From: Lingula anatina
Lineage: Eukaryota > Animalia > Brachiopoda
Assembly (NCBI GenBank): GCA_051362555.1
Contig: CM120643.1
Location: 29,888,848-29,952,847 of the forward strand
DNA length: 64,000 nucleotides
Direction: 5' to 3'
Shown: in pieces, positions 13,405 through 63,744 of the stretch
How the letters are laid out: the number at the start of each line of letters is the position of its first letter
Position numbering within the stretch: position 1 is the stretch's first letter
Notes under the pieces: generated by a model
The model's input: the letters and a program-made list of their open reading frames with translations, nothing else
Told to the model about the DNA's origin: nothing
Databases searched by the model: none
Made by a program: the position numbers and the translations under genes

Positions 13405-16400
13405 GTGGGTACACAGACTACACGATGAATACATTAATAAATAAATATCATCATTAGTGCAGGATTAAATTTTACGGGTACATTAATTTGAAAATTAATT
13501 GAATTAAATTCACATAACTTGGGTGATATTAATATTAGTAGAACAGTAAGAGCCAAAGGCTACGCATATATATGATCATATAACTAATGGAAGAATTTAA
13601 CTGGTTTGCACAGTCAGTTTTTCTCCACTTTAATTCAGTTTATCATCATGGAAATTTTGATATACAGCTATACATGTGGATACTATCTGTGATATAAAGT
13701 TGTCTGTACACTTGCAGGATATGTGGGTATCAACTGTGATATAAAGTTGTCTGTACACTTGCAGGATATGTGGGTATCAACTGTGATATAAAGTTGTCTG
13801 TACACTTGCAGGATATGTGGGTACCAACTGTGATATAAAGTTGTCTGTACACTTGCAGGATATGTGGGTACCAACTGTGATATAAAGTTGTCTGTACACT
13901 TGCAGGATATGTGGGTATCAACTGTGATATAAAGTTGTCTGTACACTTGCAGGATATGTGGGTATCAACTGTGATATAAAGTTGTCTGTACACTTGCAGG
14001 ATATGTGGGTATCAACTGTGATATAAAGTTGTCTGTACACTTGCAGGATATGTGGGTACCAACTGTGATATAAAGTTGTCTGTACACTTGCAGGATATGT
14101 GGGTACCAACTGTGATATAAAGTTGTCTGTACACTTGCAGGACATGTGGGTATCAACTGTGATAGAAAGTTGTCTGTACACTTGCAGGACATGTGGGTAT
14201 CAACTGTGATATAAAGTTGTCTGTACACTTGCAGGACATGTGGGTATCAACTGTGATATAAAGTTGTCTGTACACTTGCAGGATATGTGGATACTATCTG
14301 TGATATAAAGTTGTCTGTACACTTGCAGCATATGTAGGTATCAACTGTGATATAAAGTTGTCTGTACACTTGCAGGATATGTGGGTATCAACTGTGATAT
14401 AAAGTTGTCTGTACACTTGCAGGATATGTGGGTATCAACTGTGATATAAAGTTGTCTGTACACTTGCAGGATATGTGGGTATCAACTGTGATGTAAAGTT
14501 GTCTGTACACTTGCAGGATATGTGGGTACCAACTGTGATGTAAAGTTGTCTGTACACTTGCAGGATATGTGGGTATCAACTGTGATATAAAGTTGTCTGT
14601 ACACTTGCAGGATATGTGGGTACCAACTGTGATGTAGAGATCAATGAGTGCTCGGGATCCAGAAAATGCAATCATGGAGGCACCTGTGTTGATCAGATTG
14701 CTGGCTTCTCATGTCTCTGTCCTAATGGTAAGATTTTAATCACTTCAAGCCTTCCAACACAATATTATAATCTAAACATACTACGCAGGGATTAATTTTT
14801 CTCAGATAATTGTCTACCTGTCTACCTATTGTATTTATCAGATATACTAAACACGTACCGTCCCTGCAGAGGTCAAGTAATTGAACCTCAGAGCAATGGT
14901 TAAATCTGTTTAATGGCTCATGTGGTGGCAGGGAGACCATCAGCAGATTAGTCAGCTCTGTTTTCATGTATGGACCATCATATATGACCTGTGGATCAGT
15001 AGATCTGAGGGTCATCTGTTGTGAATGCTCTCTTACACAATGTCTTTTCGATTGACAATCTATTCTTTAATTGAAATGGGGCATGCTTATTCTTGTTATT
15101 TTGTGATCACATTCCAGGTACAATAGGATCGACCTGCAACATCAATGACTACTGTAACATCATCTCGCCATGTCAGAACAATGGCCAGTGTGTGGACATC
15201 AGCGTTCCATGCACTGACAACTCAGGAACTTTCTGTAATGCTACATATGAGTGTCAATGTCAAAGTGGTGAGTTTAGTGTCAGCATGTAGTGAATTGGAT
15301 GTCAATGTCAAAGTAGTGAGTTCAGTGTCAATGTCAAAGTAGTGAATTCAGTGTCAATGTCAGAGTAGTGAGTATTTTCAGTATCAGAGTAGTGAGTTGA
15401 GTGTCACTTACAGAGGTGTGAGCTGAGTGTCAATGTGGGGCTGTAGCAATACTCCAAAGGTTCAACAGTCTGTAGGTTCATTGGTCCGAATGTTCACTAT
15501 ATAAACTTCGGACCAATGAACTCTTGATTAGAAAACCGATGAAAATGTTACCATTTTTCGGACCAATGAACCTTTGGAGTATCAAGACGCCCCTGTCAAT
15601 GTCAGAGTGGCCAGTTGAGTGTCAATGTCAGTGCAGTGACTATTTTTGTTCCAGCATATGCATGTTTATTTTGACATTAAGTGATAACAGATGCTTTAAT
15701 ATATACCGGTATGTCCAAACTTTCAGGTTTCACTGGTATAAATTGTGAAATAAACATAGATGAATGTGCATCCTCCCCCTGCCAGAATGGTGCTACATGC
15801 ATTGATCAGGTGAATGGTTACATTTGTTCCTGTCCATCAGGTAGGTGCACAGGGCAGTCAAACCACAGTAATGAGTCTATGGTATTATTTATTTTATAAA
15901 ACATGATCATTATCAGCTATATCATGCCAACATTCTGACATGTTCATGACCTTCAAGATTGCTCTTCTGTCCTGAACATAGCTAATGAAGCCCCATTGAA
16001 AACAACATGCTAAAAAAACAGGTGTGCTTCTGTGACAACAAACATAATCACAATAAGTATATATTATTAATGAGTCATAGATGAAGAAACAATGACAATG
16101 CTTAAAATGTTGAAGTTTTGTTTCAAGCAAATTGTTTTTTGGCTATTATACATATAAAAAATTGTTATTGAATTCAGAAAATGTTCCCTATATTAATTAT
16201 AATTCATCGGGTTGTTTTTTAATAACATATCCACTGTTGATAGGCTTTACTGGAACCACCTGCCAAGTGAACATCAATGACTGCCAGTCCACATCCTGCA
16301 ACCAGCGTGGGACATGTGTGGACGGTGTGAACTCCTTCACTTGTAACTGTGCAACTGGGTACACTGGCGCCACCTGCAACAGATGTGAGAACTACCTGCT

Positions 16401-19400
16401 ATTAATTACTTAACTGAGTGGAAATATTCAGGAACAGTTATAAGAACACATTAGTCATGATTCCATTTTGTATTTCTATAACAACTTCAGACATGATTGT
16501 CATAAGAACACATTAGTCATGATTCCGTTTTGTATTTCTATAACAACTTCAGACATGATTGTCATTACACAACATTGTCCATCCAAGACCCAAATGAATG
16601 CATATTAATGGTAATAATTCCACAAACTAAAGCCCTATCAGTGATAATATACCCAAGAGCCAGCTAACCCAATGTTTTCTCTCTCTCCTGATAGTAATAA
16701 TTCCACAAACTAATGCCCTATCAGTGATAATATATCCAAGAGCCAGCTAACCCAATGTTTTCTCTCTCTCCTGGTAGTGGTGGAGACCAGACTGGTGTCA
16801 TACTCCTTCGAGGACTCCTGTTTCAAGCCTGGAGATGACAAAGGAATCACTGTCAACATGGATGTCACCTTCCCATACTTCCAGCACAAGGTTTCCTCTG
16901 TGTTTGTAAGTAAAAATCCACTGAGGCTGGAAGGGATAAATCATAGAAATCATTATCATCCTATAAAATACTTATAAATGATACACTTGATGTGAAAGGA
17001 GTTATGTAAGTTTATTTGTCTAGAACACAGAATAGACTGTTCCTTAGACTGAGCATAAATAAGCTCATTTATACTGTGCCTTTCTTTCACAGATCAGTGA
17101 CAATGGCTACCTGACCTTCAACACTCGACTGCCATTCTTGTTTCGGCCATATCCCTTCAGCCAGCTAAGGGTGCCTTTGCTTGGTGTGTTCTGGTTAGAC
17201 CAGGATTTCACCAACCCTGGACTCACTAATGCTGAGTCCAGACTCTGTTACCAGGCCTATGATGTCATCAAGGGACTCAGTGACACAGGAAACTATGTCA
17301 AAGATGTTGCTGAATATGAAGTGAATAATAACCCAAATATGCAGCTCAGCTTCAAGTTTAAAGCCAGTTTTATCTTTGTGGTCACTTGGGAGAAGGCTGT
17401 CCCCTTTCCCTCTGAATTATACTATGGACGTGAGGTAAGAGAAACCAGGCAATTAGAAAAATGTGTTTTGTAAAATAGTCATCCAGTTAAAATATAGCAA
17501 GACTTAGTATAATAAGTGAGCAGTTTCAGTGGAAAGAAAAATAGTTTGAATCAACAGAAAAATGAGGAAAATGTTACATTGATAAGTATTAATAAAAGGT
17601 TGAAATTACTTTTTTGAATTAAGACATGTCAATTTTAAAAAGTGTGCATTTGATATCTGAATGCTTTCAGAACTTCACCTACCAAGCAGTCATTGCTACT
17701 GATGAAAAGTATACCTTTGCCATTCTGAATTATGGTGATATGTTTATGAGGTCAGGAAGTAGGTCCCGCCCTGTTTATGTTGGGTATGCTACAGGGGATT
17801 TGTCCTGTCCGTCATTCAACCACGCCCAATGTTATGGACAGAATTACCTGTCTAATCTTCCTGCTGTCTACAACATCAACTCATTGAAAGGGAACACTGG
17901 TATGTGAATATGCTTTCTCTCATTTCTTTTTAATATGCCCCTCGCCTATTTTTATAAGAAATAAGATTGGATATATCACTGATGCAGCAATGGCTACTTG
18001 TAAGAAGGACAGAAATCATCTAAAGTTTGTGCTTGGATGAACAGAGGATCAGTGTCAGTTGAACACAGTGGAACATTCAGTTATATTCAGGAAACTTCCA
18101 GGTGAAGGAACACCATTTTTGTATTTCATGTAGTAACGTTTTGAAGATATTTTCAAGATTAAAAACACCTCGACTTATTTACAGGTTCAACAGGAAAAGA
18201 GATGTACAGACTTGACAACAGTGACAACCAGATCAACTACGACCAGCTGTGTCTGGATTGGGCCCTGGCCCAGAACACGGGACTCTTGCATTTGCTTGAC
18301 CAGTCCAACGGCCCCTGTCCCTGCACTGCATTGCAAGCACTACAAGACTTCAGCTACAGATTTGACACCAGCACTTTCTGTGCCATCAGCAGGTTTCCTG
18401 CAGAGCTAGGGGGAGGAAGGGTAGGAGAGAATTTGGACATTTTCATTACATTAACAATTGCTAGAAATATCAAGGCCAAACTTCGCACAATATCTTTTCC
18501 TCTATCCTCCTATCCTGTACCCTCTGTATTCAATATGTAGTCTGTTGGTTGGTTTTTCAGCAATGCTGTTACAACTCCCAGTTATGGCTGATCACCAGTG
18601 GCCCCACAGCTGGCACCATGATTAAGAGCTTGTACCCTGGAAGTCTTCGAGAGAGGGAGGACACCCTCCCTAAAGAGTGGTGCTGTCAGAAATCCAATAA
18701 CCCCGATGTTTACTGCCTGACGTACCAGAGATACCGACCTGTGGACACCTGCCTTGGCTATGGGATACGCTTCCGTAAGTGATACCATTATATGCTTGTG
18801 GGTGAATAATATCTACAATATATATTTCATCATTGTTTGCATACTAATACAAATATATGAAGATGCTTTGAGGGACAACTAAATATTGAAGATAATATTA
18901 GCTGCCAATAGTTACTTATAAGTTAAAAAAATACTTTATTCTTATAACATATAACAGCTGATGAACTTCTCTGATACATACATGTAGATGGTAAGTAATA
19001 TGCTGTAACTAATTGCATTAGTATATATATGGATGGAAATGGTTATCTATAGAAAGTATCAGATTGATTTATAAAGAGAAGCCTTTTGCATATAAAACCA
19101 ATGTATCAGCTGAGATAATTGTTAAACAGACAAATAAAAAAGAATAGTGCTTATTATGGTGCATTCAGAACTCATTAAGTGGTAGTCTGTATTGTATGAA
19201 CCAATATACTGTGTATTTTTCCAGCTTTTGCTGATGGTGATCCACATTTGGCCACCATAGATGGCAAGGACTACACCTTCAATGGCCACGGAGAATACGT
19301 CATGGTGGAGACTGTGGAGGGAGCCTCATCTGATGGCTACATCCCTTTCTCCTTCCAAGGACGTACACAGCCTGCGTTACGTGATGGTCAGGCAACCAAT

Positions 19401-22400
19401 GCCACCATGTTCAGTGCCTTCGCTGCTAAATCTAACAACTCTGACACACTGCATGTAGAAATGGTGACCAATAACACTGGTAAGTCTATGTATTGTCTCT
19501 AGAATAAAACACATTGCATGTAGAAATGGTGACCAATAACACTGGTAAGTCTATGTATTGTCTCTAGAATAAAACACACTGCATGTAGAAATGGTCACCA
19601 ATAACACTGGTAAGTCTATGTATTGTCTCTAGAATAAAACACACTGCATGTAGAAATGGTGACCAATAACACTGGTAAGTCTATGTATTGTCTCTAGAAT
19701 AAAACACACTGCATGTAGAAATGGTGACCAATAACACTGGTAAGTCTATGTATTGTCTCTAGAATAAAACACACTGCATGTAGAAATGGTGACCAATAAC
19801 ACTGGTAAGTCTATGTATTGTCTCTAGAATAAAACACACTGCATGTAGAAATGGTGACCAATAACACTGGTAAGTCTATGTATTGTCTCTAGAATAAAAC
19901 ACACTGCATGTAGAAATGGTGACCAATAACACTGGTAAGTCTATGTATTGTCTCTAGAATAAAACACACTGCATGTAGAAATGGTGACCAATAACACTGG
20001 TAAGTCTATGTATTGTCTCTAGAATAAAACACACTGCATGTAGAAATGGTGACCAATAATACTGGTAAGTCTATGTATTGTCTCTAGAATAAAACACATT
20101 GCATGTAGAAATGGTGACCAATAACACTGGTAAGTCTATGTATTGTCTCTAGAATAATTCTTGGTTGTATCTAACCCAGTGGCATCAAACCATGGTCAGT
20201 CAAATAACACTGGTGCCAGTAAGAACCTTTTGTACCCATGGCCATCTCATCAAACCCTGGCCCAAAGTTGAAGAGCTAATTTCACAAACAAACCTTACTG
20301 CTTAGGGTACCAAAAGCAAACATGGTAGAAAGCAAAGTCTGCTATTATATATATAGCTAAGATAGGACAAATATATGGTTATATTTCATTTTGAGTCAGT
20401 AGTAGTGTGAACTCCATGTGAATTTTGCCAATCACAGCAGTAGTCAGTGGTGTTTCTAAGGGATATGGTCCCCCTCTGAAGCTATTATTATAGAAATCTA
20501 AAAGAAGTGAGACAGAGGTGCAATATCAGTGATAGATGGTACCAGACCAGCACAGGTACCCCTGTTAAAATCCTAATATTAAGATCCAGTTATATTGTGC
20601 AATGATTTCTTCCTCAGCCTTAGAAGTCTGGGCATACCGTGAAAGCACTGGCCAATGGGAGCTGGTAAATCTGACTTCTGCAATTCCAACTTTCGACAAT
20701 ATGGAAGTGATCTATAATGCTACAGGCAGCAGTGTAACTGGGGTGTTTTCTTCAGGTAAGACTTTTCTCTCTGACTGTTATGTACATATTGGTATATACC
20801 GACCCTCAATCTAAGTTATGTTTTGCATTGAGGTGCTGTGGCTGAAACTATTGTAAAGCAAGCTGGGTTTAGTCTTGGATAATTGTGAAACCAAGATTAT
20901 AATTCACAACTAGGTTAATTAATCCAATGCCAAAATAATGTCCACTGATATTTCAATTTGCCACCAGGTATAATTACCTACTTTTCAGAGGACACAAAAA
21001 CATGCTTTTAAGGCAATTTCTGGAGGCTACCTATATTGAACATAAAGCATATTTTAACAACATAACACATTTCAATCCAGGCTGGTCTATCACCATTTCC
21101 CTCAGTGAAGGTGTGCTCAGTTTCTTGGCTGGAGCACCTGGGACTGCCATCAACAGGACACGAGGTCTACTGGGGGTGTTCAATAATGACATCACAGATG
21201 ACTTCACCACACCTGACGGCACTATTCTGCCTATCAATTCAACAGAAAGACAGATCCATTACAACTTTGGACAGCTGTGTAAGTGATGCAATTCATCTCA
21301 GTGATGTACAATGCAAACATTTGGAATCTTATACTAGAAATTTATAACCCATTCATGAGGTATTATATTATATTATATTATGGCATCAATGTAGAACAAA
21401 TGTTCCAACAACATACAGAAATTCAATTCTCCACTCTACCTCATTTGACTGAGAGCTACATGTATATATCCTTGGACCTGTTGTGAAGTATATATCAGAA
21501 GTTCACAACTTGGTGGTAAACAGCCATTTCCTTCAAAAACTCTGTCTTTTAAATCTGTATGTTGACTTACAAATATTTAAAACTAATTATCATCTTTCCA
21601 TCACAGGGATGGTCCAAGAAGGGGCTTCCCTCTTCCATTACAAGGGTGAACTGACAACCTCCAGTTTCCAGGAACCCTCTTTCCAGCCAGTTTTCTTTGA
21701 CGAAATCAGCTGGCCAAATGAAACCATCAAAGCCGAGTATTACACCATCTGTAATAATGTTACACAGTGTGTTTATGACTACTGGCTTACTCTGAACAAG
21801 AAGCTGGCAGAAGCCACAGCTACGAAGCAGGCAGAAAATGCTGTTAAGGCTGGGGAAGCAAGTGAGTGCCATTAATGTTTTATCACCTAAAACATTTCCT
21901 TTTACTGTTAAAAAGATCAGTTACCTACGAGTAGTACCCTATCTTTAATACAGACAGAAAGAACAAAAAGCCATTTATCTCTGATAATGTTTGAAACATT
22001 GTATTATAAGAAGACAGGAAATATTATTGACAATTTACCTCTGTAAACATACTGTATGCATGGTATGAGTACTGTAGATTACCCAGTGATGTAGTGTCTA
22101 TAGTGGCATATGTAAACATTGATCACTGAGTTTGTCCTTTGTTAATCTGACTGTTTCTTGTGTCCAGAGAATGCTGTCCCCAGAATCAGGCTGATTCCAG
22201 CCACAGTCAATGTCACAGGAGGTGACCTGGTCACTGTTAGTGTATCTGTCACTGATGATGATGTCACAGACGTGGTCAGCTTGTCATACACTGGAAATAC
22301 CACGGGAACTAGTTTTAACAACAGCACTGGACTCTTTACCTGGACCCCAGCTCTCACAGCACAGGTGTTTATGATCAGGTGAGATAGATATCCAACAATA

Positions 22401-25400
22401 CTATATAGCAGTCACAGCACAGGTGTTCATGATCAGGTGAGATAGATATCCAACTTTACTACATAGCAGTCACAGCACACCTATACACAACTATACTATA
22501 TAGCAGGCACAGCACACCTATACACACATATCACTTTTAAGATGTCTGTCAAGTTCAAATTTCAGATATATCTCATACTTATATATATATATATATATAT
22601 ATATATCACCTGAATAAATATTTTTTAAACCAAAGAAAATCTTGGTTGGTCTCAGCTGTTTCATCCGACTATTTAATTATTAAAACATGTTTCAACAGGA
22701 CTACTTTCATTACACTATTAACTTTGGATATGGCCCAAAGTGGCCTTATTCTATGTATTATCATGGTAGACAGATCCTAATGTATTTATACAGTATAATA
22801 ATTCACTGAGTAACTGTTTACTTTGGTCATGTGTAGGTTCATAGCTGACGATGGCAATGGTGGGGTGTCAGAGGCATCAGTCCGGATAAGTTACTGCAGT
22901 GGATGCTCTTCAAGTGGCACATGTAACTTTGACAGGCAGACCCTGCCAGATGTGAACTTCCCCAACTTTGCCGTGGCAACTTGTGAATGTGCTCTAGGAT
23001 ATACAGGTAGGTGTTCAATAGGTACAGGTAGTTACTCTAGGATATACAGGTAGGTGTTCAATAGGTACAGGTTGTTACTCTAGGATATACAGGTAGGTGT
23101 TCAATAGGTACAGGTAGTTACACTAGGATATACAGGTAGGTGTTGAGTAGGAACATTTGTAGTTACTACATGTATAGGATATACACGTAGGATAATGTTG
23201 AGTTGGTACAGGTATTTACTCTAGGATATACACGTAAGATAGTGTTGAGTTGGTACAGGTAGTTACTCTAGGATATACACATAGGATAGTGTTGAGTTGG
23301 TACAGGTAGTTACTCTAGGATATACACGTAGGATAGTGTTGAGTTGGTACAGGTAGTTACTCTAGGATATACAGGTAGGTGTTGAGTAGGAACATATGTA
23401 GTTACTACATGTATACGGTAGGATATACACGTAGGATAGTGTTGAGTTGGTACATGTAGTTACTCTAGGATATACAGGTAACTGAAATGTAAGAGGATTT
23501 TCTATTGGTTAATTAATACAACTAAATAAAGTTTATATAAAACTAATATTAGATTAATTGAAAAAACATTCAGTGTTAATCTCTGAAACTATTTTTTCAT
23601 AAGTACTAAAAAGGTATGAAGTGTTGATCTGTGTCCCTGTAGGTGATGACTGCAGTATAGATCTGGATGGCTGTCTAGCTAACCCATGTCCACAGGATGT
23701 GAACTGCACTGATGTTCCAGCCCCTCTCCACAGCAGTTCTGGAGTAGCCTTCACCTGCTCTGACTGCCCATCAGGGTTCACACTGGACAACAACACCAGA
23801 AAGTGTGTGGGTAAGTGGACATGACACCAGGAAGTGTGTGGATGTGTGGACATGACACCAAAAAGTGTATGGGTGTGTGGAAATTACACCAGGAAGTGTG
23901 TGGATGTGTAAACATGACACCAAAAAGTGTATGGGTGTGTGGAAATTACACCAGGAAGTATGTGGATATGTGGACATGACACCAAAAAGTGTATGGGTGT
24001 GTGGAAATTACACCAGGAAGTGTTTGGGTAAGTGGACATGACACCAGGAAGTGTGTGGGTAAGTGGACATGACATCAGGAAGTGTGTGGGTGTGTGGACA
24101 TGACACCAGGAAGTGTGTGGGTAAGTGGACATGACACCAGGAAGTGTGTGGGTAAGTGGACATGACACCAGGAAGTGTGTGGGTGTGTGGACATGACACC
24201 AGGAAGTGTGTGGGTAAGTGGACATGACACCAGGAAGTGTGTGGGTGTGTGGACATGACACCAGGAAGTGTGTGGGTAAGTGGACATGACACCAGGAAGT
24301 GTGTGGGTGTGTGGACATGACACCAGGAAGTGTGTGGGTAAGTGGACATGACACCAGGAAGTGTGTTTGTAAGTGGACATAGCACCAGGAAATGAAGTGG
24401 ACATACTAGTGGCAGTACAAGAGGTGTGCCTAACCAGCTTTTTTCTGTTTATAAGGGGGGTATGACAATTACATGTGTCACCAATTGTAAATTATTTGAA
24501 ATGCTTAATGTTAAATACTTTGTAGTACTGCTTTACATAAAGTCCCTTGAGAAAAAAATTTTTGTATCACAGCAGTTTAATTATGCACACGGTACAGCAA
24601 TTAAAACGTACTGAGATATATGACTATTTAAACCAAACTTGTTATTAAATTATCCATGCTGGTGAGCTCAAATATCCACAACAAACTGGGTTCAAAAATC
24701 AAACATGGCTGTGCATGCTCAAAAACAGAACCTTTTTTCTCTAAGAGTTCAAGTAATTATCTACATGAAGGGCTCATGATCAGCTAAACCTGCACAGTTA
24801 AAGATGCTCTATGACTGACTATTTCCAGATATTGATGAGTGTGCTATGGGCTCCAATGTGACCAATAACTGTGAACAGTTGTGTGAAAACACAGAGGGCA
24901 GCTACACATGCACCTGCTATGATGGATATAGAAGCAATGGATCACGCTGTTATGGTAAGTTGACATGTATATATCTTTTTTTTGCTGTCTCTTCAGTTGT
25001 GAATTTAATTAGTGATGAAGTTTCCAAGACCTTCAATATAGAGGGTAGGGAATACCTTTTGCATTCTGCGTGATTGGCCTTTTTTTTCAAGCATGATGCA
25101 TTATTTAAGCCCTATATTCTGCATGAAATGTGATTTAGGAATTCTGGGTGATTGAGCCATTTTCATCTTGGTGGTTGGTGGGAGGGGGGGGAGTATTCCT
25201 ACCCTCAATATACTGTGACTGTGGACATCCATGAAATCTAGCAGTGACTGAAAAGATCACATAGAAAAATTTCCTGTAGGAGTCCAATTGGACTTCAGTA
25301 GGACTCTGTATAACATTCTATTTGACTGCAAATGAATTCTACTAAAGATTCTGCAGGATTTATAGGACAGTCTATCAGACATGTCAAAGGAGAACCATCT

Positions 25401-31400: not shown

Positions 31401-31585
31401 ATGACCATATGCAGGTACTGGGGTGTACCTAGGGGACAGATAAAGAGCCGGAAAGAATAGCATTTACTGCTGAAAAGAATTGAATTACCAGTATGTGAAA
31501 ATATCTAATTAAAATAAAAGTTGATGTGACCTTTTACTTATGTTATTTAGAAGTATGTGTGTATATACACACATGCACACACACA

Positions 31586-31625
<40 letters not shown>

Positions 31626-35577: not shown

Positions 35578-35602
35578 AATAAATTATTTTTACATTAATA
35601 AA
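35578..35602 (+). promoter_or_regulatory. Candidate polyadenylation signals (AATAAA x2) of the mucin gene
   Basis: AATAAA at 35578 and 35597, followed by a GT-rich tract (ttgtggttgtgtt), about 1.4 kb after the stop. Confidence 0.5.
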
Positions 35603-37905: not shown

Positions 37906-38425
37906 TAACATCACATAGAAAAATACACAAAATTTGAAATTATCAAGAATAATGAAAACAATCTACAAGTACGTCATCAACCTGCTCACTAATACCTTCT
38001 TGGTGACTTGCATTGTAAAGTTAAAATTTAACAATAAATATTAATCTCAAGTCAAATCATGCAGAGAAAATGCAAATAAAAAGAATGTTATTCAATGTTA
38101 TTCAATGGTCTCAGCCCTCATCTGATCACACACAGAATTAAAATAAAGAACTATCTTGGGAACATGCTGAACTTACATGTGCAAAACCGTGAAAATATTT
38201 ACATTCACATCCCAGATAGTAATGCTGGAAGGTAATGGAAGTAAAATACCTTATAAAAGTAGGATCCATCACCCCGCTCCCCCCCCCCCCCCCCCCTTTC
38301 CTCCCTTCACCCACCAGGTGTCACCACAACTGTGACCTTGAAAAGTAGGTCAAGGTGATAACTGGGGAAAGTCTCACTAAATCCAAAGAAAAGTATTCCA
38401 CATTTGGTGGTCATTTTATGTCTTA

Positions 38426-40584: not shown

Positions 40585-40666
<82 letters not shown>

Positions 40667-52600: not shown

Positions 52601-55600
52601 GTCACATTTAGATTGCCAGTATATGACTTTCTATTCAAGTTCAATAGTAACTACGGACCTATCTCAGCCAGTTTTGGAGATAAAAGAAAAGCAAAATTTG
52701 CAAAGTTCAGTTCATGGTGTAAAGTAGGTCAAAGGTCAATTTCAAGGTCACATTTAGATTGCCAGTATATGACTTTCTATTCAAGTTCAAGAGTAACTAT
52801 GGACCTATCTCAGCCAGTTTTGGAGATAAAAGGGAAGCAAAATTTGCAAAGTTCAGTTCATGGTGAAAAGTAGGTCAAAGGTTAATTTTAAGATCACATT
52901 TAGATTGCCAGTATATGACTTCCTATTCAAGTTCAATAGTAACTATGGACCTATCTCTGCCAGTTTTGGAGATAAAAGGGAAGCAAAATTTGCAAAGTTC
53001 AGTTCATGGTGAAAAGTAGGTCAAAGGTCAATTTCAAGGTCACAGTAAGATAGCCAGTATATGACTTCCTATTCAACTTCAATAGTAACTATGGACCTAT
53101 CTCTGCCAGTTTTGGAGATATAAGGGACTAAATGTTATAATTTTGGAGTTACCATAATGTGCCTTAAATTTCGTACAGAAAAAATTAATCAAAATAGAGA
53201 AAATGTCATTTTGGTCAAAATTCTTGAAATAGGAGGTGCTCTGAAGTTTCAGAAGTTCAAATTTGATGAAATAATGTCATTTTTGAACACAAGTTGTCTG
53301 CTTTGCCAAGCCTTATGTATTATTTTTCCAGAGTTCAAAATTTATTATCCATTACCGTACTGCACATTTTGCTTTTACCACCAATATGTACTTTTTGATA
53401 CAGCGTAACTCAAAAACCGTATGGAATACAAAAAAACCGAGACCACCTCCAGTGTTGGGCTTTACATGCACTACAAAATGCAAAAAAGAATGGGTCTCTA
53501 GCATTAACGGTTCCCGAATTAGAGACAGTTTTCAGTTTCGGTATCTTATGGCCGCTACTCCCGTGAAAATGCACCGATTGACCCCAAATTCATGGAGATG
53601 AAAGATGACCTGAAGGGTAACACTTTCCAATAATATTATTGGTTAAGTCTGTGTAGTGTCTGAATAACAGGGCAAAAAAAAATTTTTTCATAAAAAATTT
53701 CATTTTTTTGAAAATTTTGGCCCATTTGACCTTGAAGTAAAGGTCAAAGGTCAAATCCAAGGGTATATTTGAAATCTACACATATGACTTTTGGAAAGCC
53801 GTCTATAGAAATTTTTCCCATAACTCCTTCCGTAGGGTAGATAATTAGCATTTAATTTTGCCATTTTTAGACAAGGGTGCATTGTAATGAGTGCCACACC
53901 CAGACCCCAATACCGACAAAGCCCAAATTTTACGTGGAACGAGTTGAGATTATAGGTGACCTAAATCCATGAGATGGGTACGGGGGCCCTTACCGTCTAG
54001 GAGGAGAAGCGGTAACGGTAGCCGTCCGGCGGAGCCGGCGGAGCTGGTGGAGCCGGCGGAACGATCCGGACGGGACCGAAACCATGTGTACCGCCAGCGC
54101 TAACGCTGGTGGTACAATAAAACCCGTACATGCAAGAGTAAATGTATCAATAAGAATGATTCAGACAGTGAGGATGAAGATCAATTTGATGTTGATACCA
54201 TTTTACCTGGAAAGGTAGAAAGTATAATTGAACGTGAATATGACATAGAGAAATGTACAGAAAATATTGATGAGTATGAAAGTGAGGGTGATGTACATGT
54301 TGAGGAAGGGAATGAAAGAATTTCTCACATTGGTGAAGCTGTGTGCACAGGTGATTAGAGTAGCGAGAAGATTCCCATATTGAGGAGATCAAAAAGAACC
54401 AGAAGGAAACCTGTGTAGACGACTTATGTGTATATTATGGAACTACACGTAAGTTTAAGTGAGTTGACAGAGAAACAAGGGGACATATTACCATCAGTAG
54501 ATGTGTATGAAATGTTTTTTTCAGCAAGGCAAAAGCCTAATGAAAATATGACACTGTGGGCTAGTAGGTTGGAAAAACTTATTAGTTCTACAGAACTTGA
54601 TTCGCCTAGTATGTGTAATCAAATGTTGCAAAATAAATTCTACAGGGGGTTAGTGTCATCTGACATGAAAAATGGATTGAGACACAGATTTGACAATGGT
54701 GAGTGTTTTGAATGTTTATTGACCGCTGTGCAGTGCTGGAGCAAGAACGCAGTAGAGTTAGAATTGCTCAACATCTTCTTCATATTGTTGTCCCGCCAGA
54801 GACGGCTGAACCTGACAAAAATGGAAGAAGTACTTAAACTTTTTAGATAAAATGAATGAGAGATTAGAGAAATTAGAAAACAAGGCAGCAAAGCTGTCAA
54901 ATGTACAGACAAAAAAAAACAGAAAATAAAGATGCAAAATAGGTCATTTTGTCAATTTTGATGCAATAATAAATAATGCTTATAATAGCACTGTCAGTCA
55001 ACACTGAATTTTAATCATGCACAACAGGTAACATGGTCAATAACAGGAGCGGACCCTGAGATATTTTCTGACAGTATTCCAAAGTATCTATGTTGATTCA
55101 TCCTCCATTTTGATGGTCTTCCAACAGAAAAAAATAGATACTAGTCAATATAAACTTAATAACCTGTCTTCCAGAAGACCCAGAAGATGGTCTCAATCCA
55201 CCCCTTCAATAAGATTACAGTTTCAGGGCCATGAGAGACCAAAGTCACATGATGAAAGTCTCAATATTTGAAAAATGATGACAGTGCATAAAATAATATT
55301 ATATAATGTTTAAAGACATAAAAAACAATACAATTGCTTATGTGGAAATACAGAAAATGTGCAGAGCCTCGAGCGGATGAGAGTTAAAAGTCACAAATGC
55401 AAGTGTTTGAGAAAAAATTGTAAAGGAAAACATAACAAAACTAGAAAACCACTGAGAGTGCAGACCTCTGCCAAGGCAGCAATTGTTGATTATTATTGAT
55501 TATTGATTGATTATTGAGCCAGACCACCACTAAAAACTAATCATTGTCCTCTTTGGCCCAATTCTGACAGTTCCTGAAAATTTTAACAAAATCGGTCCAT

Positions 55601-55714
55601 AACTTTTTGAGTTATGTTGATGACAGACAAACAGGGGTGAAAATATAGCCTCCTTGGCAGAGCCTGAGGTAAATATAATTTCAATGAAGCTGCAATTCAA
55701 ACTTTTAATCTTTG

Positions 55715-55793
<79 letters not shown>

Positions 55794-58700
55794 ACCTGCA
55801 TAATTATCACTGCTTCCTTATTATTAATCTAGCAGAGCTTAACTTTTGGGAGTTTACAAGGAAATATCAACAAGTGTGCTTTATGTAATCTCCTTTAATG
55901 GCCTATCAATTAGGCAAATGACTTTATAACTCAGAAATTAGGCTAAGTGATACCCAAGGGATATTAACAGACTGACCCTCTCAAAGGTCTTTCAGGCCCA
56001 TAAGTCACATCTTAAGAAAAGCACAAAACAATAATGCACAAAATAGGAGACTACCAATTCTGATGCAATAATACATTATGTTTTACTGCACAGTCAACAT
56101 CAAATTTTAATTATGCACAACAGGTAACAACGACGAAAGTAAAAGCATAAGGCTTCAGGCCCATCAGAGTTCAAGTTTATACTTAGAAAGTGCCAGAATG
56201 AGAAAAATGAAAATTTCACACAAAATTGCATAAATTCAATAATAAATGATAACCCAATTGACCTGGCTTTCTAATTTGAACTGCATGCCTATTGATGCAA
56301 CATTACATAATGCTTAACAGCATAATGACCATCAATTTTTAATAATAGAATATTAGTAACATGGACATTCAGAAAACGTGACAAGCAAAGGTCTTCATGA
56401 TCATGGAACTTCAAAGTCACACCTTGAAAATGCCAATAAGTGAAAAATAAAATTTTCACAAAAAACTGTTTAACTGCCAGAAAAAATTACCAAACAGACT
56501 GCATTGCCTACTGAAGCTGTATTTTAGCCCCATGTTTCTTTCCTGTAAGTTTGAAAACAGTAAGTGACATGGTTTTTCTTAAATGGTCATCATGGGAGCA
56601 GTGCCCAAAATAGGGGTTTCTTCAAATTTTGATGCAATATTACATAATGTTTAACAGCATAATGACCATCAATTTTTCATAATAGAATATCAGTCACATG
56701 ATTATTAAGAAAACGTGACCAGCAAAGGTCTGCAGGCTCATGGAACTTCAAAGTCACACGCTGAAAATGCCAATATGTGAAAAATTAAATTTTTACAAAA
56801 AACTGTTTAACTGCCAGAAAAAATTACCAAACAGACTGCATTGCCTACTGAAGCTGTATTTTAGCCCTATGTTTCTTTCCTGTAAGTTTGAAAACAGTAA
56901 GTGACATGGTTTTTCTTAAATGGTCATCATGGGAGCAGTGCCTAAAATAGGGGTTTCTTCAAATTTTGATGCAACATTACATAATGTTTAACAGCATAAT
57001 GACCATCAATTTTTAATCATAAAATATAAGTATCATGCATATTCAGAAAATGTGACTAGCAAAGGTCTGCAGGCTCATGGAACCTCAAAGTCACATCTTA
57101 AAAATGCCAAAATGTAAACAAGACAGCACTGTTCTGAAATGGGTTTATTTCCATTTTTAACATTTTTTAACATAAAACAAAATAAACAGTTTGTTGCCAT
57201 TTTTATATGACCAACTAAGAAAATTGATGAGATGGGAAAAATATCAATAGAACAGTGTTAAATGTCCAATTTCCTTCATTCTGAGATTCTGAACATAGTG
57301 GATGATTGAATCTGACAAACTGCTGATATGAGTTTATTTCCATTTTTGACACTTTATTACACAATACATGAAAACAAGTTTACCATAATTTTTACATAAT
57401 CAATTAACAATGTTGTAAAGATGCAGGAAATATCAAACAAACACTTTAACGTATCTTATTAGTTAAATAATGAGACTGTTAACATGCCTAAGAATTGAAT
57501 CTGAGGAAATGTGAAAAAACAGCATAACTTTTAAAATAAAGGCCCGATTATGCTGATTTTCGAACTCAACCTGCGTTTTAGTTAGTTTGACTACTCCTGT
57601 GAGTATAATGACAATTGGCCTATCTGTTTTTCTTATATTGTGTTATCAGTGTTGTATATATGTTGAAAAAAGTGAAAAAACAGCATAAATTCCCTGGAAA
57701 TGACCCGCTCATGCTGATTTTCGAACTTGACCTGCAGATTATGAATATTCAACAGTTTTGTAAGTTTCAAGCCAAAAAGTAAAATGATTTTCCACTTATC
57801 GTGTTATCGGTGCTGCATATATGCTGAAAAAAGTGAAAAAACAGCATAACTTCCCTAAAAATGACCCAATCACGCTGATTTTCGAACTTGACCTGCGTAT
57901 TATGAATATTTATCAGTTCTGTAAGTTTCAAGCCGAAAGCAAAAACGGTTTTCCACTTATCGTGTTATCGGTAAAAGTGCACGACGGCAACGACGGTGAC
58001 GACAGACGCAGATGATGGCTATATGTACAGACACATCTGTGTCTGTACATAAAAAGCAAGGAAGAGTGGAACGTACGTGAGAAGAGAGCTTGTTTTACCT
58101 ATGGTGACACAGGTCGCATTAAAAGAAATTGACAGAAACGTTTAAACTAAATCAAACCCAACTCGAGAGGCGGATATTGGGTAAGAAAACACAAAGTCCC
58201 ATGAATAGACTGATTGGTCCTTCAAATGAGATGGATGTTGTGATTGGTGGTGTGAAATGTCAAGCATTGTGGGATACGGGTTCTATGGTGTCTACCATTT
58301 CAGAGTCATTTTTCAGAAACTCTTTGCACCGCAATGAACTGTTCCCTGTAAATGACTTACTGACTGTTCAAGGAGCCAATGGCTCTTCACTATTGTATAC
58401 TGGCTACACTGACGCTCATCTTGAAATCAATCAAGATTATTCTCACGTACCAAATTCTCCAATTTCAGTTCCAGCCTTGTTTCTCATAGTCCCTGACACA
58501 GAGTATAATGCCAGAATACCAGTCATCATCGTCACCAATGTCATGAATAGAGTTACAGGTTTGAAGTCTCTACTTAAAAGTAACGTGGTGCACTCTACCA
58601 AGTCATTTATAATAAAGCCAAACCAATCATTAGTCATACATGGCTTCCTGAGAGAGCCCCAGGGTAGTAAATTCCCTGTTGTAGTTGAACCATCTCCCAG

Positions 58701-61700
58701 CCTTTCAGGTGGTCTACTGTTGGAACCTAGTCTGATTGAGTTGAATGGACATTTCCAATGTTAGTCAGAAAAGTGTGTGTGTGCCTGCAAAGTGCGCAAC
58801 TGCTCAAGTCAGTGATGTTTGTCACATTGGTATGTTAGATTCACCAGTTGAAATATCTAGCCATTCTTAGACAAATGATCTTGAGAAAATCTTCCCAGAC
58901 GAGCCCCCAAATGCCAAAGCGATCAGTTTTATATGCTTTATTGAACAACAAAAGAGTCAGGTCTGAAAATGTAAAGAATTGTCTCATTTCAAGACAACAA
59001 ACTGGACAAGAAAGACCAAGTCTTTCCTATGGCGCGACTTGCGAACGACGCAAAAGAGATTTCGGACAAAGAAAAACACACACAAGAGAATACAAAAATT
59101 ATATGAAAGAAAGACAAATGAATACGAACACAAGGATGACACAATGAGAGCCCAAGGAGAGTGCAACTAAATCACTTCACCTGTTAGTTGTCACTTTAAC
59201 TTTCTGTCTCTCAGCACTTCACTCAGTACCTAGTATACAAAAGAACATAACTTTCTGTCTCTCAGCACTTCACTCAGTACCTAGTATACAACTCAACACC
59301 TGCCATATAGAAGAACAAAGACAACTTTTCTAAGCACTTCAAATAACTTTTTAAAATCTATAATTACAATATGACAACTGTTCTTTTTCTTACCTCTGCA
59401 TAGCGTTCATAATCCAAGGCGTCCTTCATTCCTCCATGGTCACTGATAACGCCGCCCACACTCTCGTACTTGTGGTCTGCAGACAAAGCAAACATTAAAT
59501 CAGTAAGACTCAGCTTATCATTACACAAAGAACACAAGAATATTGGGTCCAAGCTTAGATTTCCTGCAGATACCAGCTGACTCAATTACACCCAACCTTG
59601 GACCCTAGCTTAGATTTCCTGTAGATACCAGCTGAATGATTACACCCAACCTTGGACCCTAGCTTAGATTTCCTGTAGATACCAGCTGACTCAATTACAC
59701 CCAACCTTGGACCCTAGCTTAGATTTCCTGTAGATACCAGCTGAATGATTACACCCAACCTTGGACCCTAGCTTAGATTTCCTGTAGATACCAGCTGAAT
59801 GATTACACCCAACCTTGGACCCTAACTCACATTTCCTGTAGATACCAGCTGAATGATAACACCCAACCTTGGACCCTAGCTTAAATTTCCTGTAGATACC
59901 AGCTGAATGATTACACCCAACCTTGGACCCTAGCTTAGATTTCCTGTAGATACCAGATGAATGATTACACCCAACCTTGGACCCTAGCTTAGATTTCCTG
60001 TAGATACCAGCTGAATGATAATACCCAACCTTGGACCCTAGCTTAGATTTCCTGTAGATACCAGCTGAATGATTACACCCAACCTTGGACCCTAGCTTAG
60101 ATTTCCTGTAGATACCAGCTGAATGATTACACCAGCTGAATGATTACACCCAACCTTGGACCCTAGCTTAGATTTCCTGTAGATACCAGCTGAATGATTA
60201 CACCCAACCTTGGACCCTAGCTTAGATTTCCTGTAGATACCAGCTTAATGATTACACCCAACCTTGGACCCTAGCTTAGATTTCCTGTAGATACCAGCTG
60301 AATGATTACACTCAACCTTGGACCCTAGCTTAGATTTCCTGTAGATACCAGCTGAATGATAACACCCAACCTTGGACCCTAGCTTAGATTTCCTGTAGAT
60401 ACCAGCTGAATGATAACACCCAACCTTGGACCCTAGCTTAGATTTCCTGTAGATACCAGATGAATGATTACACCCAACCTTGGACCCTAGCTTAGATTTC
60501 CTGAAGATACCAGCTGAATGATAACACCCAACCTTGGACCCTAGCTTAGATTTCCTGTAGATAGCAGCTGAATGATTACACCCAACCTTGGACCCTAGCT
60601 TAGATTTCCTGTAGATACCAGCTGAATGATTACACCCAACCTTGGACCCTAGCTTAGATTTCCTGTAGATACCAGCTGAATGATTACACTCAACCTTGGA
60701 CCCTAGCTTAGATTTCCTGTAGATTCCAGCTTAATGATTACACCCAACCTTGGACCCTAGCTTAGATTTCCAGAAGATACCAGCTGAATGATTACACCAA
60801 ACCTTGGACCCTAGCTTAGATTTCCTGTAGATACCAGCTGAATGATTACACTCGACCTTGGACCCTAGCTTAGATTTCCTGTAGATTCCAGCTTAATGAT
60901 TACACCCGACCTTGGACCCTAGCTTAGATTTCCTGTAGATATCAGCTGAATGATTACACCCAACCTTGGACCCTAGCTCAGATTTCCTGTAGATACCAGC
61001 TGAATGATAACGCCCAACCTTGGACCCTAGCTTAGATTTCCTGGATGTAACACCTGGCAAAATTTAGCTAGCTGAATCAAAGTAGGTAGTAATGTGCTGA
61101 CCCCTATTGCCCATAGAAAGTGTTAGCTAGCAAATAGTTTTCTTTGATTGCTTTTTAACGACATTCCTGGAGGTGGCTTAAATTTCACTGCACATCTCAT
61201 TCCTTTGTCTGATCTAGAGAGGAGAAAACGTGTTTTCACAATACTAGCAGTTTTTTTACACCTTTTTGTACACCTTTGTGAAACCTGTCTGACCAGGAAT
61301 GTAAGTAAAATTGTTTTAATGTAATTTTTTTTTTTGTTTGTAACTAGAGAAATTAAGATGCGCTTAGTTAAGTGAATTGTTGTTTTTGGCTTGCCTTTGA
61401 GTTTAACGCTTACTGAGAAGCAGTTTGACCCACATTGATTTTAATTGATTTATCTACACTGTACTAGTTCTTTGCTGTGACATTTAATGGTTTTTATGAC
61501 ACACCTTGTCTTATGTGGTAGAATTTTTATAAGTAAAACATGTTTAAGGTTCAGTTAGATATTCTGAAGGAGTAATGCACCTCATGCTTTCTCTGCTGTC
61601 TCATGTTACACAAATTGTGCTAGTTGTATCAAAGATGTTGGGTGCCTGAATTGTGCCATATTGTGCTATTGCAGATTTCTCAATTACAGCATTCTAGATT

Positions 61701-63275
61701 ATTCCCTTTGTAATTATTGCATTAAAGTAGTTAAGTATTTTATTTATTTATTTATTTATTTAATTAATTTTTTATTTCAGTTAAAACCGTCGTTGTAGTC
61801 GTTGACGAGTATTGTACAACTGGTAGAGACAAAAGAAGGAGAATAAACAAATTACATCACCCCAACGAGACTATATTCCGTTTTCTAGCACTACGTGTGT
61901 TACACTGAAGATACCAGCTGAATGATTACACCCAATCTTGGACCCTAGCTTAGATTTCCTGTAGATACCAGCTGAATGATTACACCCAACCTTGGATCCT
62001 AGCTTAGATTTCCTGTAGATACCAGCTGAATGATCACACCCAACCTTGGACCCTAGCTCAGATTTCCTGTAGATACCAGCTGAATGATTACACCAAACCT
62101 TGGACCCTAGCTCAGATTTCCTGTAGATACCAGCTGAATGATTACACCAAACCTTGGACCCTAGCTTAGATTTCCTGAAGATACCAGCTGAATGATTACA
62201 CCCAACCTTGGACCCTAGCTTAGATTTCCTGTAGATACCAGCTGAATGATTACACCCAACCTTGGACACTAGCTTAGATTTCCTGTAGATACCAGCTGAA
62301 TGATTACACCCAACCTTGGACCCTAACTCACATTTCCTGAAGATACCAGCTGAATGATTACACCCAACCTTGGACCCTAGCTTAGATTTCCTGTAGATAC
62401 CAGCTGAATGATTACACCCAACCTTGGACCCTAGCTCAGATTTCCTGTAGATACCAGCTGAATGATTACACCCAACCTTGGATCCTTGCTTAGATTTCCT
62501 GTAGATACCAGCTGAATGATTACACCCAACCTTGGACCCTAGCTCAGATTTCCTGTAGATACCAGCTGAATGATTACACCCAACCTTGGATCCTTGCTTA
62601 GATTTCCTGTAGATACCAGCTGAATGATTACACCCAACCTTGGACCCTAGCTCAGATTTCCTGTAGATACCAGCTGAATGATTACACCCAACCTTGGATC
62701 CTTGCTTAGATTTCCTGTAGATACCAGCTGAATGATTACACCCAACCTTGGACCCTAGCTTAGATTTCCTGTAGGTACCAGCTGAATGATTACACCCAAC
62801 CCCACAACTCTCCTCTGCTGTCAACCCCACAACTCTCCTCTGCTGTCAACCCCACAACTCTCCTCTGCTGTCAACCCCACAACTCTCCTATGCTGCCAAC
62901 CCCACAACTCTCCTCTGCTGCCAACCCCACAACTCTCCTCTGCTGTCAACCCCACAATTCTTCTCTGCTGTCAACCCCACAACTCTCCTCTGCTGCTGCT
63001 GAGTCACCATTTTAGGAGTGGTGTAGTCACATAGCACCAAACAAGCTGGTGGGCTGTTTTCCCACAGTGTCCTGTACTTAAAGCTTGTATACTATTAGAG
63101 TTCCCTTATATGAGAGGGAAACCATCACATACCTTCATAGAACTTGACAATACTGGGGTGGGGGTGACCTTTCTGTGACCTCTTTGTCTTCTTGGCCTTC
63201 AGCCAAGGTTTGATGTGCTGATTGACATATGAAGCCACGCCCCTAGGATCATGCTCCTCAATGGGGTGCCAGAAT
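38791..63275 (-). CDS. KAP family P-loop NTPase, NKPD1/KIDINS220-like, with 4 predicted TM helices (5' end outside window)
   Basis: Exons 63275-63133, 59476-59394, 50788-50665, 47884-45962 and 39104-38791 join in phase: DALDYERYAE|VLSEVL..PVTVGIQGSWGVGKT (Walker A), VKFNAWEYAGSDFLWAG, FVIFVDDLDRC (Walker B), GYEYLKKIITLPFSL, NPRSIKRITN, EQWPYR, FLPYTVNID. Confidence 0.9.
39029..39523 (-). repeat. 94-bp tandem array spanning an acceptor (5 acceptors)
   Basis: gtgtcttgtattttacag|atcagaatgtgctactggagaagg...; AG positions from 39105 to 39481 = 4 x 94. Confidence 0.92.
40094..44870 (-). mobile_element. HINE-like element family B copy 1, with a 161-bp internal satellite
   Basis: aaaacaag + hairpin ggcagcaaagctgtc + atgtacagaca ... 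(GAC/GGC)n microsatellite + atgtacagacacatctgtgtctgtacat; same termini as 54877-58052; 161-bp period at 43141/43302/43463/43624. Confidence 0.82.
40275..40495. mobile_element. Diverged palindromic MITE nested in HINE B1
   Basis: ctccaaggggtttctcactaaattgc vs gcaatttagcgagaattcccttggag; absent from the paralogous sequence near 56145. Confidence 0.55.
44887..45976 (-). repeat. 83-bp tandem array spanning the donor of the main KAP exon, split by a MITE
   Basis: Minus-strand unit gctgaggacaggg|gtaggtttgtacaggacagg...; copies lie at 45663-45976 and 44887-44985. Confidence 0.88.
44986..45662. mobile_element. PIF/Harbinger-type MITE, 677 bp, 3-bp TSD CAG
   Basis: TIR gggcccgtttcacgaagcagt / actgcttcgtgaaacgggccc; neighbouring repeat units show the empty site agcCAGgtcttcc. 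Confidence 0.88.
45962..47884 (-). CDS. Main KAP NTPase exon (TM pairs, Walker B)
   Basis: ORF 45936-47822 extended to acceptor tttcccag|atgcag; phase 1 at both ends. Confidence 0.92.
47955..48058. repeat. 36-bp tandem repeat x3, about 70 bp from an acceptor
   Basis: tgaccatgttttactatctcatccttataccatatc. Confidence 0.9.
48161..50614 (-). mobile_element. Kolobok-like degenerate DNA transposon (TTAA TSD, AGG termini) with a possible THAP remnant
   Basis: ttaa|aggg..ttcatg ... catgaa..cct|ttaa; subterminal inverted ggtcacgtggt..tgacgac / gtcgtca..accacgtgacc; minus ORF 50312 starts MPRCVAVG, like THAP N-termini. Confidence 0.55.
50665..50788 (-). CDS. KAP NTPase Walker A exon (absent from the ORF track)
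   Basis: ttttgtatactag|VLSEVLRDRKLSMPVTVGIQGSWGVGKTFLLNLLEYHLRKT G|gtatgt; 124 nt, phase 0 to phase 1. Confidence 0.92.
51243..54420 (+). pseudogene. Ty3/Gypsy integrase C-terminal remnant, interrupted by HINE A2
   Basis: LHPGDRVLVK..GRHKLADRWQDEVFTV...YQVRREGG..KVLH; resumes after 54120 with an acidic tract and LRRSKRTRRKP. Confidence 0.75.
51496..54120 (-). mobile_element. HINE-like element family A copy 2, with about 10 x 146-bp satellite units
   Basis: aaactagag + hairpin + attgtaccaccagc ... (ggcggagcc)n + gtaccgccagcg-ctaa-cgctggtggtacaat; period 146 (51838, 51984 ... 52568). Confidence 0.85.
54428..54876 (+). pseudogene. Ty3/Gypsy gag (PNMA-like capsid) remnant
   Basis: FFSARQKPNENMTLWASRLEKL...MLQNKFYRGL; frameshifted; continues after HINE B2. 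Confidence 0.72.
55044..55207. mobile_element. Second, inverted copy of the 168-bp MITE
   Basis: Matches the reverse complement of 27453-27620; flanked by (c)aataa on both sides; the empty site is at about 41221-41240. Confidence 0.78.
55438..55673 (-). mobile_element. Short HINE-like element nested in B2
   Basis: aaactaga + hairpin cactgagagtg + acctctgccaagg ... gacagacaaaca ... ccttggcagag..aggt; missing at the paralogous site near 41475. Confidence 0.65.
58053..58870 (+). pseudogene. Gypsy zinc-knuckle remnant plus aspartic protease
   Basis: CFTYGDTGRIKRN* (decayed CX2CX4HX4C); IGGVKCQALWDTGSMVSTISESF...GANGSSLLYTGY. Confidence 0.85.
59198..59291 (-). repeat. Two displaced 51-bp copies of the Walker A exon acceptor
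   Basis: aactttctgtctctcagcacttcactcagtacctagtatacaa is identical to 50757-50799. Confidence 0.9.
59394..59476 (-). CDS. KAP NTPase exon preceding Walker A
   Basis: tttgtctgcag|DHKYESVGGVISDHGGMKDALDYERYAE|gtaaga; phase 1 to phase 0. Confidence 0.85.
59546..62800. repeat. 54-bp intronic minisatellite (about 44 units) split by a solo LTR
   Basis: acacccaaccttggaccctagcttagatttcctgtagataccagctgaatgatt; blocks 59546-61045 and 61905-62800. Confidence 0.96.
61046..61904 (+). mobile_element. Solo LTR, 859 bp
   Basis: TGTAACAC...GTGTTACA inverted termini; 5-bp TSD ctgga/ctgaa; AATAAA at about 61842. Confidence 0.8.
62796..62995. repeat. 29-bp minisatellite x7 fused to the 54-bp array
   Basis: caaccccacaactctcctctgctgt is repeated. 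Confidence 0.92.
63133..63275 (-). CDS. Upstream KAP gene exon
   Basis: catttcag|RFWHPIEEHDPRGVASYVNQHIKPWLK...VKFYE G|gtatgt; its phase-1 end matches exon 59476. Confidence 0.75.
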
Positions 63276-63744
63276 CTGAAATGTACATAAAATATGGTAA
63301 TCAACTGATTGACATATGAAGCCACGCCCCTAGGATCATGTCCCCCTATGGGGTGCCAGAATCTGAAATGTGCATAAAATATGGTAATCAACTGATTGAC
63401 ATATGAAGCCACGCCCCTAGGATCATGTCCCCCTATGGGGTGCCAGAATCTGAAATGTACATAAAATATGGTAATCAACTGATTGACATATGAAGCCACG
63501 CCCCTAGGATCATGTCCCCCTATGGGGTGCCAGAATCTGAAATGTACATAAAATATGGTAATCAACTGATTGACATATGAAGCCACGCCCCTAGGATCAT
63601 GTCCCCCTATGGGGTGCCAGAATCTGAAATGTACATAAAATATGGTAATCAACTGATTGACATATGAAGCCACGCCCCTAGGATCATGTTCCCCTATGGG
63701 GTGCCAGAATCTGAAATGTACATAATATATGGTAATCAACTGAT
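63218..63744 (-). repeat. 87-bp in-frame tandem array spanning an acceptor (6 acceptors)
   Basis: AG at 63276, 63363, 63450, 63537, 63624 and 63711; translates without stops as 29-aa repeats. Confidence 0.93.

Follow-up and report, generated by a model that had tools for sequence, protein, structure and literature searches.

Why do so many splice junctions in two neighboring genes of the brachiopod Lingula anatina lie inside tandem repeats, and do duplications arise preferentially at junctions or simply survive there? Dense arrays whose excess can be measured make that question testable, and we address it here in one stretch of 64,000 nucleotides (the window). Reading frames were open throughout both gene models (31 exons on the plus strand and 5 on the minus strand), and one modeled exon was a 100% match to a Lingula anatina protein. 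Gene 1 carries a Thr-rich 75-bp repeat, EGF, NIDO, VWD, and EGF; its NIDO, VWD, and EGF_CA domains were matched in Pfam, and 12 of its 30 introns were backed by RNA. The two models hold 69 junctions, rather than the 67 of an initial annotation whose junction coordinates otherwise stood to within 0 to 1 base. Fifteen of these, or about one in five, lie inside arrays, which are real features of the sequence, as Tandem Repeats Finder (TRF) returned 13 of the 15 in place and the other two were confirmed by hand:

1..34171, plus strand: gene 1, membrane mucin-like, 31 modeled exons, start upstream of the window
13687..14633, plus strand: 47 bp x20 acceptor array, exon start 14611, unit of 24 intron and 23 exon bases (TRF)
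15250..15436, plus strand: degenerate ~26 bp donor array, exon end 15267 (TRF)
16611..16778, plus strand: 83 bp x2 acceptor duplication, exon start 16778, 1 exon base per unit (TRF)
19444..20157, plus strand: 65 bp x11 donor array, exon end 19479 (TRF)
22354..22479, plus strand: 58 bp x2 donor array, exon end 22378 (TRF)
22992..23480, plus strand: ~43-47 bp x11 donor array, exon end 23006 (TRF)
23793..24391, plus strand: 31 bp x19 donor array, exon end 23810 (TRF)
26517..27292, plus strand: 71 bp x11 acceptor array, exon start 27253 (TRF)
30465..30614, plus strand: 38 bp x4 donor array, exon end 30495 (TRF)
31322..31419, plus strand: 51 bp x2 donor duplication, exon end 31363 (missed by TRF, confirmed by hand)
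31815..32665, plus strand: 51 bp x16.7 donor array, exon end 31859 (TRF)
38422..38817, minus strand: 81 bp x5 array, probable stop codon (38794-38796) within the first copy (TRF)
38794..63275, minus strand: gene 2, KAP-family P-loop NTPase (NKPD1-like), 5 exons inside the window
39031..39523, minus strand: 94 bp x5 acceptor array, conserved last exon begins at 39104
44888..45979, minus strand: 85 bp x~5 donor array, exon end 45962
50759..59300, minus strand: 51 bp x3 acceptor array, exon start 50788 (missed by TRF, confirmed by hand)
63218..63744, minus strand: 87 bp x6 acceptor array, exon start 63275 (TRF)

In all 15 junction arrays the tandem unit (26 to 94 bp) spans the exon-intron boundary, marginally so in the 83-mer with its single exon base. 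Some details differ from those first described: the array at 45962 has an 85-bp rather than an 83-bp unit and is interrupted by a 675-bp inverted-repeat element (about 44987-45661), while the array at 50788 is split by an 8.4-kb insertion that leaves two of its three copies at 59200-59300. Motif counts in 13 arrays show AG and GT signals retained in the copies, most of which keep the splice signal, with, for example, 19 acceptors counted in the 47-mer and 11 and 8 donors in the 65-mer and 31-mer, respectively. Each unit is private to its locus within the window, where no cross-hits between arrays were found, as the initial annotation had held; a transposon or satellite family was ruled out because no unit is common to many loci of the window. 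Recurring 142/146-bp and 161-bp repeats were left out of the array set. On inspection the units are contiguous exon-plus-intron DNA, which does not fit templating on spliced mRNA, and that origin was rejected.

Copy-to-copy joins were present in DNA from two other studies, those of the 47-mer and 83-mer in run X3 and that of the 38-mer, at high depth, in run X5, so the arrays are not an assembly artefact. An assembly or polishing error is contradicted for four arrays, and a public protein (P0001) reads through copies of the 94-mer. The copies also differ among themselves, and later insertions divide two arrays. Taken together, these observations make an artefact exceedingly improbable. Possible signs that copy number differs between haplotypes are the P0001 tail, which implies another allele of the 94-mer, and the high X5 depth on the 38-mer, although contigs do not report how many copies are present. 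A 62-bp duplication is single copy in X3.

At the 6 of 15 arrays covered by RNA, each of the 113 junction reads listed took the exon-proximal site, although the animals sampled diverge from the window by several percent and may not carry these arrays. Four reads join the upstream exon to 14611 at the 47-mer, five run from 15267 to 15727 at the ~26-bp donor array, five use 16778 at the 83-mer, three join 19479 to the exon at 20618 at the 65-mer, and 52 run from 30495 to 30837 at the 38-mer. At the 51 bp x2 duplication, 44 reads exit at 31363, none of them used the in-frame decoy donor at 31414, and RNA depth was 0 across 31386-31431. Two further runs, X12 and X15, contributed only 3 and 7 reads, none informative for splicing. 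No joints within or between copies were listed at the six covered arrays, so no intron gain by tandem duplication was seen there. When the junction was shifted to the next copy, 12 of the 14 frames examined were truncated, and the remaining two, at 31414 and the 87-mer, gained 17 or 29 residues while staying in frame. Proximal use at a seventh array, the 94-mer, is backed by homology: the frame from the proximal acceptor has homologues.

The initial annotation had proposed that this lineage either tolerates or uses its stacked decoy sites, and tolerance is the half that held up. Functional stacks, in which decoys would adjust splicing, serve as steps of recursive splicing, or yield alternative products, could draw on the splice signals kept in most copies and on P0001, which takes the distal (decoy) acceptor of the 94-mer and loses the conserved C terminus. 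However, decoy use was 0 of 113 listed reads (0 of 44 for the in-frame decoy), the P0001 tail has no homologue, and units are private, with copy numbers that probably vary, making functional stacks very unlikely. The practical consequence is a public protein model whose C terminus, read from a decoy acceptor, is not conserved. When the last exon was compared pairwise with P0003 alone, which stops short of that region, no match emerged; a wider search found matches.

The original paper on "mirage" minisatellites is reportedly that of Canestro in 2002. This type of repeat is already known, contrary to the earlier statement that no named system was at hand. In the available portions of the sources, amphioxus mirages occur in Adh3, the globins BflGb6 and BflGb9, troponin C, and PGBD5; they are locus private and boundary spanning at either end, keep AG/GT, splice normally, and differ in copy number between haplotypes (PMC3087553, PMC3902484), with a mechanism called unclear (PMC3087553). 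As far as those portions go, the Lingula arrays are likewise private and boundary spanning, with signals kept and normal splicing where RNA covers them, but the host is a brachiopod and, in contrast to mirages of single genes, 15 cases fall in two genes and were counted against a placement null. The human F7 intron-7 37-bp variable number tandem repeat is also of this type: its first unit spans the donor and the most upstream of identical donors is used, and globin constructs with a duplicated donor or acceptor used only the proximal copy, with one opposite result (available text of PMC1557585 and work cited in it). Lingula arrays are similarly spliced at the proximal copy where RNA covers them; F7, as described there, is one mutation-tested donor array, whereas Lingula has donors and acceptors, many per gene. 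The accessible part of a study of human paralogues describes ~30 bp minisatellites at exon-intron boundaries that expand and are polymorphic, some making new introns or altered proteins (PMC2812944); by comparison, no new intron or altered protein was seen at the six Lingula arrays with RNA. No genome-wide mirage count and no brachiopod case were found in a literature search that mostly excluded subscription papers, and the parts seen of PMC2206037 and PMC6792250 do not mention junction arrays. What this window adds is a density above that of random placement, which may reflect a mutation bias toward exon edges.

The predicted excess over shuffled positions held when locally born arrays were placed at unit level (15 of 22 over a junction versus 4.4 expected; P = 3e-7), and it remained under the harshest null (P = 6e-5), although all enrichment statistics come from one window picked after the fact for showing the pattern. 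It did not hold when the first gene was shuffled naively at full length, which counts against enrichment (11 seen versus 8.2 expected; P = 0.07); we set this null aside as inappropriate, since the introns owe part of their length to the arrays. The junction excess over placement is real inside this window. Ordinary chance duplications, tolerated in a region rich in repeats and with the excess a window-picking effect, nonetheless form a rival reading to be taken seriously, if a doubtful one. Collapsed introns are short (median, 302 bp), so that roughly one random duplicate in four would overlap a junction in any case; chance also fits the naive shuffle, and the harshest-null P value could be reached by one window among thousands. 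Against this, the pattern appears in two unrelated genes (11 of 14 arrays, P = 6e-5; 4 of 8, P = 2e-3 once insertions were removed) and in the strict TRF-only subset (10 of 12 versus 2.6 expected; P = 4e-6), and no paired telomere repeat was found in the window, where a subtelomeric position has no support.

We favor, at a probability of roughly one-half, the reading that these are locally born mirage minisatellites over exon edges, their excess arising from a bias of duplication toward exon DNA plus survival at coding edges. Slippage or break repair would duplicate a short stretch in place; a wholly exonic duplicate would usually break the frame and be purged, while one crossing the edge with a whole splice signal would survive. 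Since the proximal copy is spliced where RNA covers the array, the extra copies are likely harmless intron. Slippage or unequal exchange may then expand the array, with copy number differing between animals. The roughly three-fold excess most likely reflects duplications that start or expand more often in DNA of exon type than in AT-rich introns, so that survivors would accumulate at coding edges of any kind. A coding-edge filter is consistent with the 81-bp array over a probable stop codon, with the 75- and 99-bp arrays, the two that lie wholly in exons among those called at score 50 and both in frame, and with a higher GC content in exons (47%) than in nonarray intron (33%). Units contain at least 6 intron bases in 9 of 9 donor units and at least 20 in 6 of 6 acceptor units, minima that match a splice-signal filter but are weak alone (P = 0.056). 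Units are also exon rich (mean, 0.56 versus 0.41 expected under that filter; P = 0.004), in a post hoc test that is sensitive to where unit ends are drawn and whose effect shrinks against an unfiltered expectation near 0.5.

Mutation targeted to splice junctions themselves, through pausing, R-loops, or nucleosome-edge nicks, would also give 15 arrays against 4.4 expected; the 83-mer ends at the acceptor AG, and the pattern recurs in lancelets, according to the portions of those reports at hand. We consider it rather improbable: the 83-mer aside, the junction sets no fixed end to the units, and the exon share of a unit ranges from 1% to 88%. Array ends share no common signature, with overhangs of 2 to 10 bases in four arrays, shortfalls of 1 to 5 bases in four, and partial end copies in others. 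Moreover, the 81-mer probably spans a stop codon, and only 4 of the 8 arrays of about three copies or fewer touch a junction. The last count, set against 10 of 12 for expanded arrays, would fit random births followed by persistence or lengthening of junction arrays, a selected copy reseeding the array. The numbers are small, however, constraint on part of one copy would be expected to have a modest effect, and long intronic arrays occur too (54 bp x44); this reading is less probable still.

On a wider scale, genome-wide minisatellite birth or expansion in the brachiopod, and perhaps in lancelets and annelids, might favor exon edges via splicing or an exon-chromatin bias, a tentative extension that we would not yet expect to hold. 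If it did, private stacks of silent splice sites would sit at one junction in five in certain regions, forming a natural library of mutation-made decoys for studying splice-site choice and intron birth.

Two observations sit uneasily with parts of the favored reading. Several junction arrays are AT rich (32 to 39% GC). The 81-bp array starts at a possible donor and may be a sixteenth splice array rather than a control at a stop codon.

Tandem arrays covering splice sites (junction arrays, named here by unit length) had been counted at about 15 in the initial annotation; 13 of the 15 named arrays were recovered by TRF and the remaining two by hand. Their units, 26 to 94 bp long and present in 2 to 20 copies, were local duplicates of contiguous exon and intron DNA and retained the splice signal in most copies. 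When compared among themselves, the arrays had no sequence likeness, each being private to its locus within the window. Two were interrupted by later insertions, the 85-mer and the gene 2 51-mer.

Insertions within junction arrays
44987-45661: element of 675 bp, ~24-bp terminal inverted repeats, lodged in the 85-bp donor array
50810-59199 (−): insertion of 8.4 kb between copies of the gene 2 51-bp acceptor array

The ends of the 8.4-kb insertion were LTR-like (~85% alike over 136 bp), and 146-, 161-, and 337-bp repeats were nested inside it; a Pfam search with its 105-residue frame at 58446-58760 returned no match. A high-copy interspersed element (15450-15590; contig depth of 3500 to 4000 in X3, a DNA run from another study) separated the 26-bp donor array from another degenerate piece of it at 15594-15624.

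Gene 1 (mucin-like, + strand; NIDO, VWD, and EGF domains) was modelled with 31 exons and gene 2 (− strand) with 5, both with open frames, giving 69 junctions in total. RNA supported 12 of the 30 gene 1 introns and fixed two of its sites (donor 16905 and acceptor 31261); gene 2 junctions were drawn from homology and from a matching predicted protein. At 45941-47882 (−), the large exon had 100% identity to a Lingula anatina-named protein, a KAP-family NTPase. A 75-bp Thr-rich coding repeat at 1-13306 (+; at least 13.3 kb, ~177 units, occasional 18-bp inserts) extended past the window start.

Arrays were in roughly threefold excess at exon edges within this one pattern-selected window. The count took in 22 locally born arrays that lay within or touched introns and had a unit of at least 25 bp; microsatellites and other arrays of shorter units were excluded, as were the 81-mer, two exonic arrays, the 337-bp repeat inside the insertion, and the recurring families of 142/146 bp and 161 bp. 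With each array collapsed to one unit and randomly positioned in collapsed introns, 15 of 22 arrays covered junctions versus 4.4 expected with insertions stripped (P = 3.5e-7) or 6.1 with all gene 2 introns set to 300 bp (P = 6e-5). The TRF-called subset (unit of ≥30 bp, at least 3 copies) gave 10 of 12 versus 2.6 expected (P = 4e-6), and gene 1 minus three doubtful cases gave 8 of 11 versus 2.9 (P = 0.002). These P values overstate the excess, since the window was chosen for showing the pattern. Chance placement combined with that choice is possible, if on the unlikely side; a shuffle of full-length gene 1 arrays is consistent with it (11 observed versus 8.2 expected; P = 0.07).

Minisatellites are made and expanded by slippage, break repair, and unequal exchange. 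At about even odds (0.5), we favor duplications that arise or expand more often in exon-type DNA and survive only at coding edges. Among the local duplicates of contiguous exon and intron DNA, selection would spare units retaining the intron bases of the splice signal; no donor unit had fewer than 6 intron bases and no acceptor unit fewer than 20 (joint P = 0.056). This filter alone yields no excess over intronic arrays, and some bias in how arrays are born or grow would be needed as well. Exon-rich units (mean exon fraction of 0.56 versus 0.41 expected given the filter; post hoc P = 0.004) and GC-richer exons (47% versus 33% in introns) favor a bias toward exon-type DNA, which would supply the excess, with coding edges as the sole place where duplicates would survive. 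Both wholly exonic arrays were in frame (n = 2). The 81-mer covered a probable stop codon, with a possible donor at the array start, and its additional copies likewise lay outside coding sequence. Beside this exon-type bias, mutation targeted at the junctions themselves appears unlikely, and longer survival of anchored arrays distinctly so.

An assembly artifact, the initial annotation's own alternative, is extremely improbable as the source of the arrays, since copy-to-copy joins recur in DNA runs from two other studies (X3 and X5) and the tail of the public predicted gene 2 protein P0001 passes through 94-mer copies. X3 contigs spanned copy joins of the 47-mer (64 bp; depth of 56.5 versus 14 to 22 in neighbors) and the 83-mer (73 bp), and a 68-bp X5 contig of the 38-mer had a depth of 516, two flank alleles being at ~55 each. 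These checks cover 4 of 15 arrays, the contigs indicating presence rather than copy number. A 62-bp intronic duplication (16440-16565) was single copy in X3 and is thus polymorphic and probably young.

The P0001 C terminus comprises 73 residues from a decoy acceptor, read through the 94-bp array (39031-39523, −); this tail had no match among the 64 homologues (best E, 0.21). Proximal acceptor 39104 gives 103 residues matching NKPD1-like homologues (E to 1.5e-8). Because this conserved end derives from acceptor 39104, homology indicates that the public model is likely mis-spliced.

All 113 listed RNA junction reads, from a single study and covering 6 of the 15 arrays, took the exon-proximal site, and none used a decoy: 4 at the 47-mer acceptor, 5 at the 26-mer donor, 5 at the 83-mer acceptor, and 3 at the 65-mer donor (run X18), with 52 at the 38-mer donor and 44 at the 51x2 donor (runs X18 to X20). 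Joints and loose ends were listed from 3 reads upward, with 9 and 1 further loose-end rows beyond those listed, and the first RNA-compared stretch included just 2 to 3 copies of the two long arrays. RNA depth was zero at the in-frame decoy 31414, and of 14 junctions shifted by one unit, 12 gave a truncated frame. The earlier proposal that decoy stacks are tolerated or used is supported for tolerance and, among these reads, not for use; functional arrays are very improbable. Since most reads were 90 to 99% alike to the window, with about one read on the 38-mer array, the same arrays may be absent in the RNA animals. At 30190-31363, reads from X18 to X20 differed at many fixed exon positions (mostly 90 to 95% alike, same species label), a divergence that, on sequence grounds, suggests a deeply divergent population or cryptic species.

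The initial annotation knew of no named system with this density, but the kind already has a name: the arrays share the testable defining features of mirage minisatellites, which span exon-intron boundaries in amphioxus. PMC3902484 adds troponin C and PGBD5 to the mirage cases, and PMC2812944 places repeats of such type in human paralogues. According to PMC1557585, of several identical donors in human F7 the most upstream alone is used; exon-proximal copies are likewise used at the six arrays here. The mostly non-subscription papers searched held no genome-wide count of mirage-type arrays and no brachiopod case. The Lingula arrays are real and dense, the kind itself is known, and what may go beyond it is the ~threefold excess at exon edges in this window.

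The largest nonjunction array, a 54-bp intronic repeat at 59552-62801 (−; ~44 copies in two blocks 860 bp apart), had one frame open over long stretches (324 codons) and adjoined a 25-bp x8 array. Recurring 142/146-bp and 161-bp tandem units (36044-37262, 51704-53125, 42737-44760, and 57636-57972) occurred inside dispersed elements, some with short CGACGG runs at the end.
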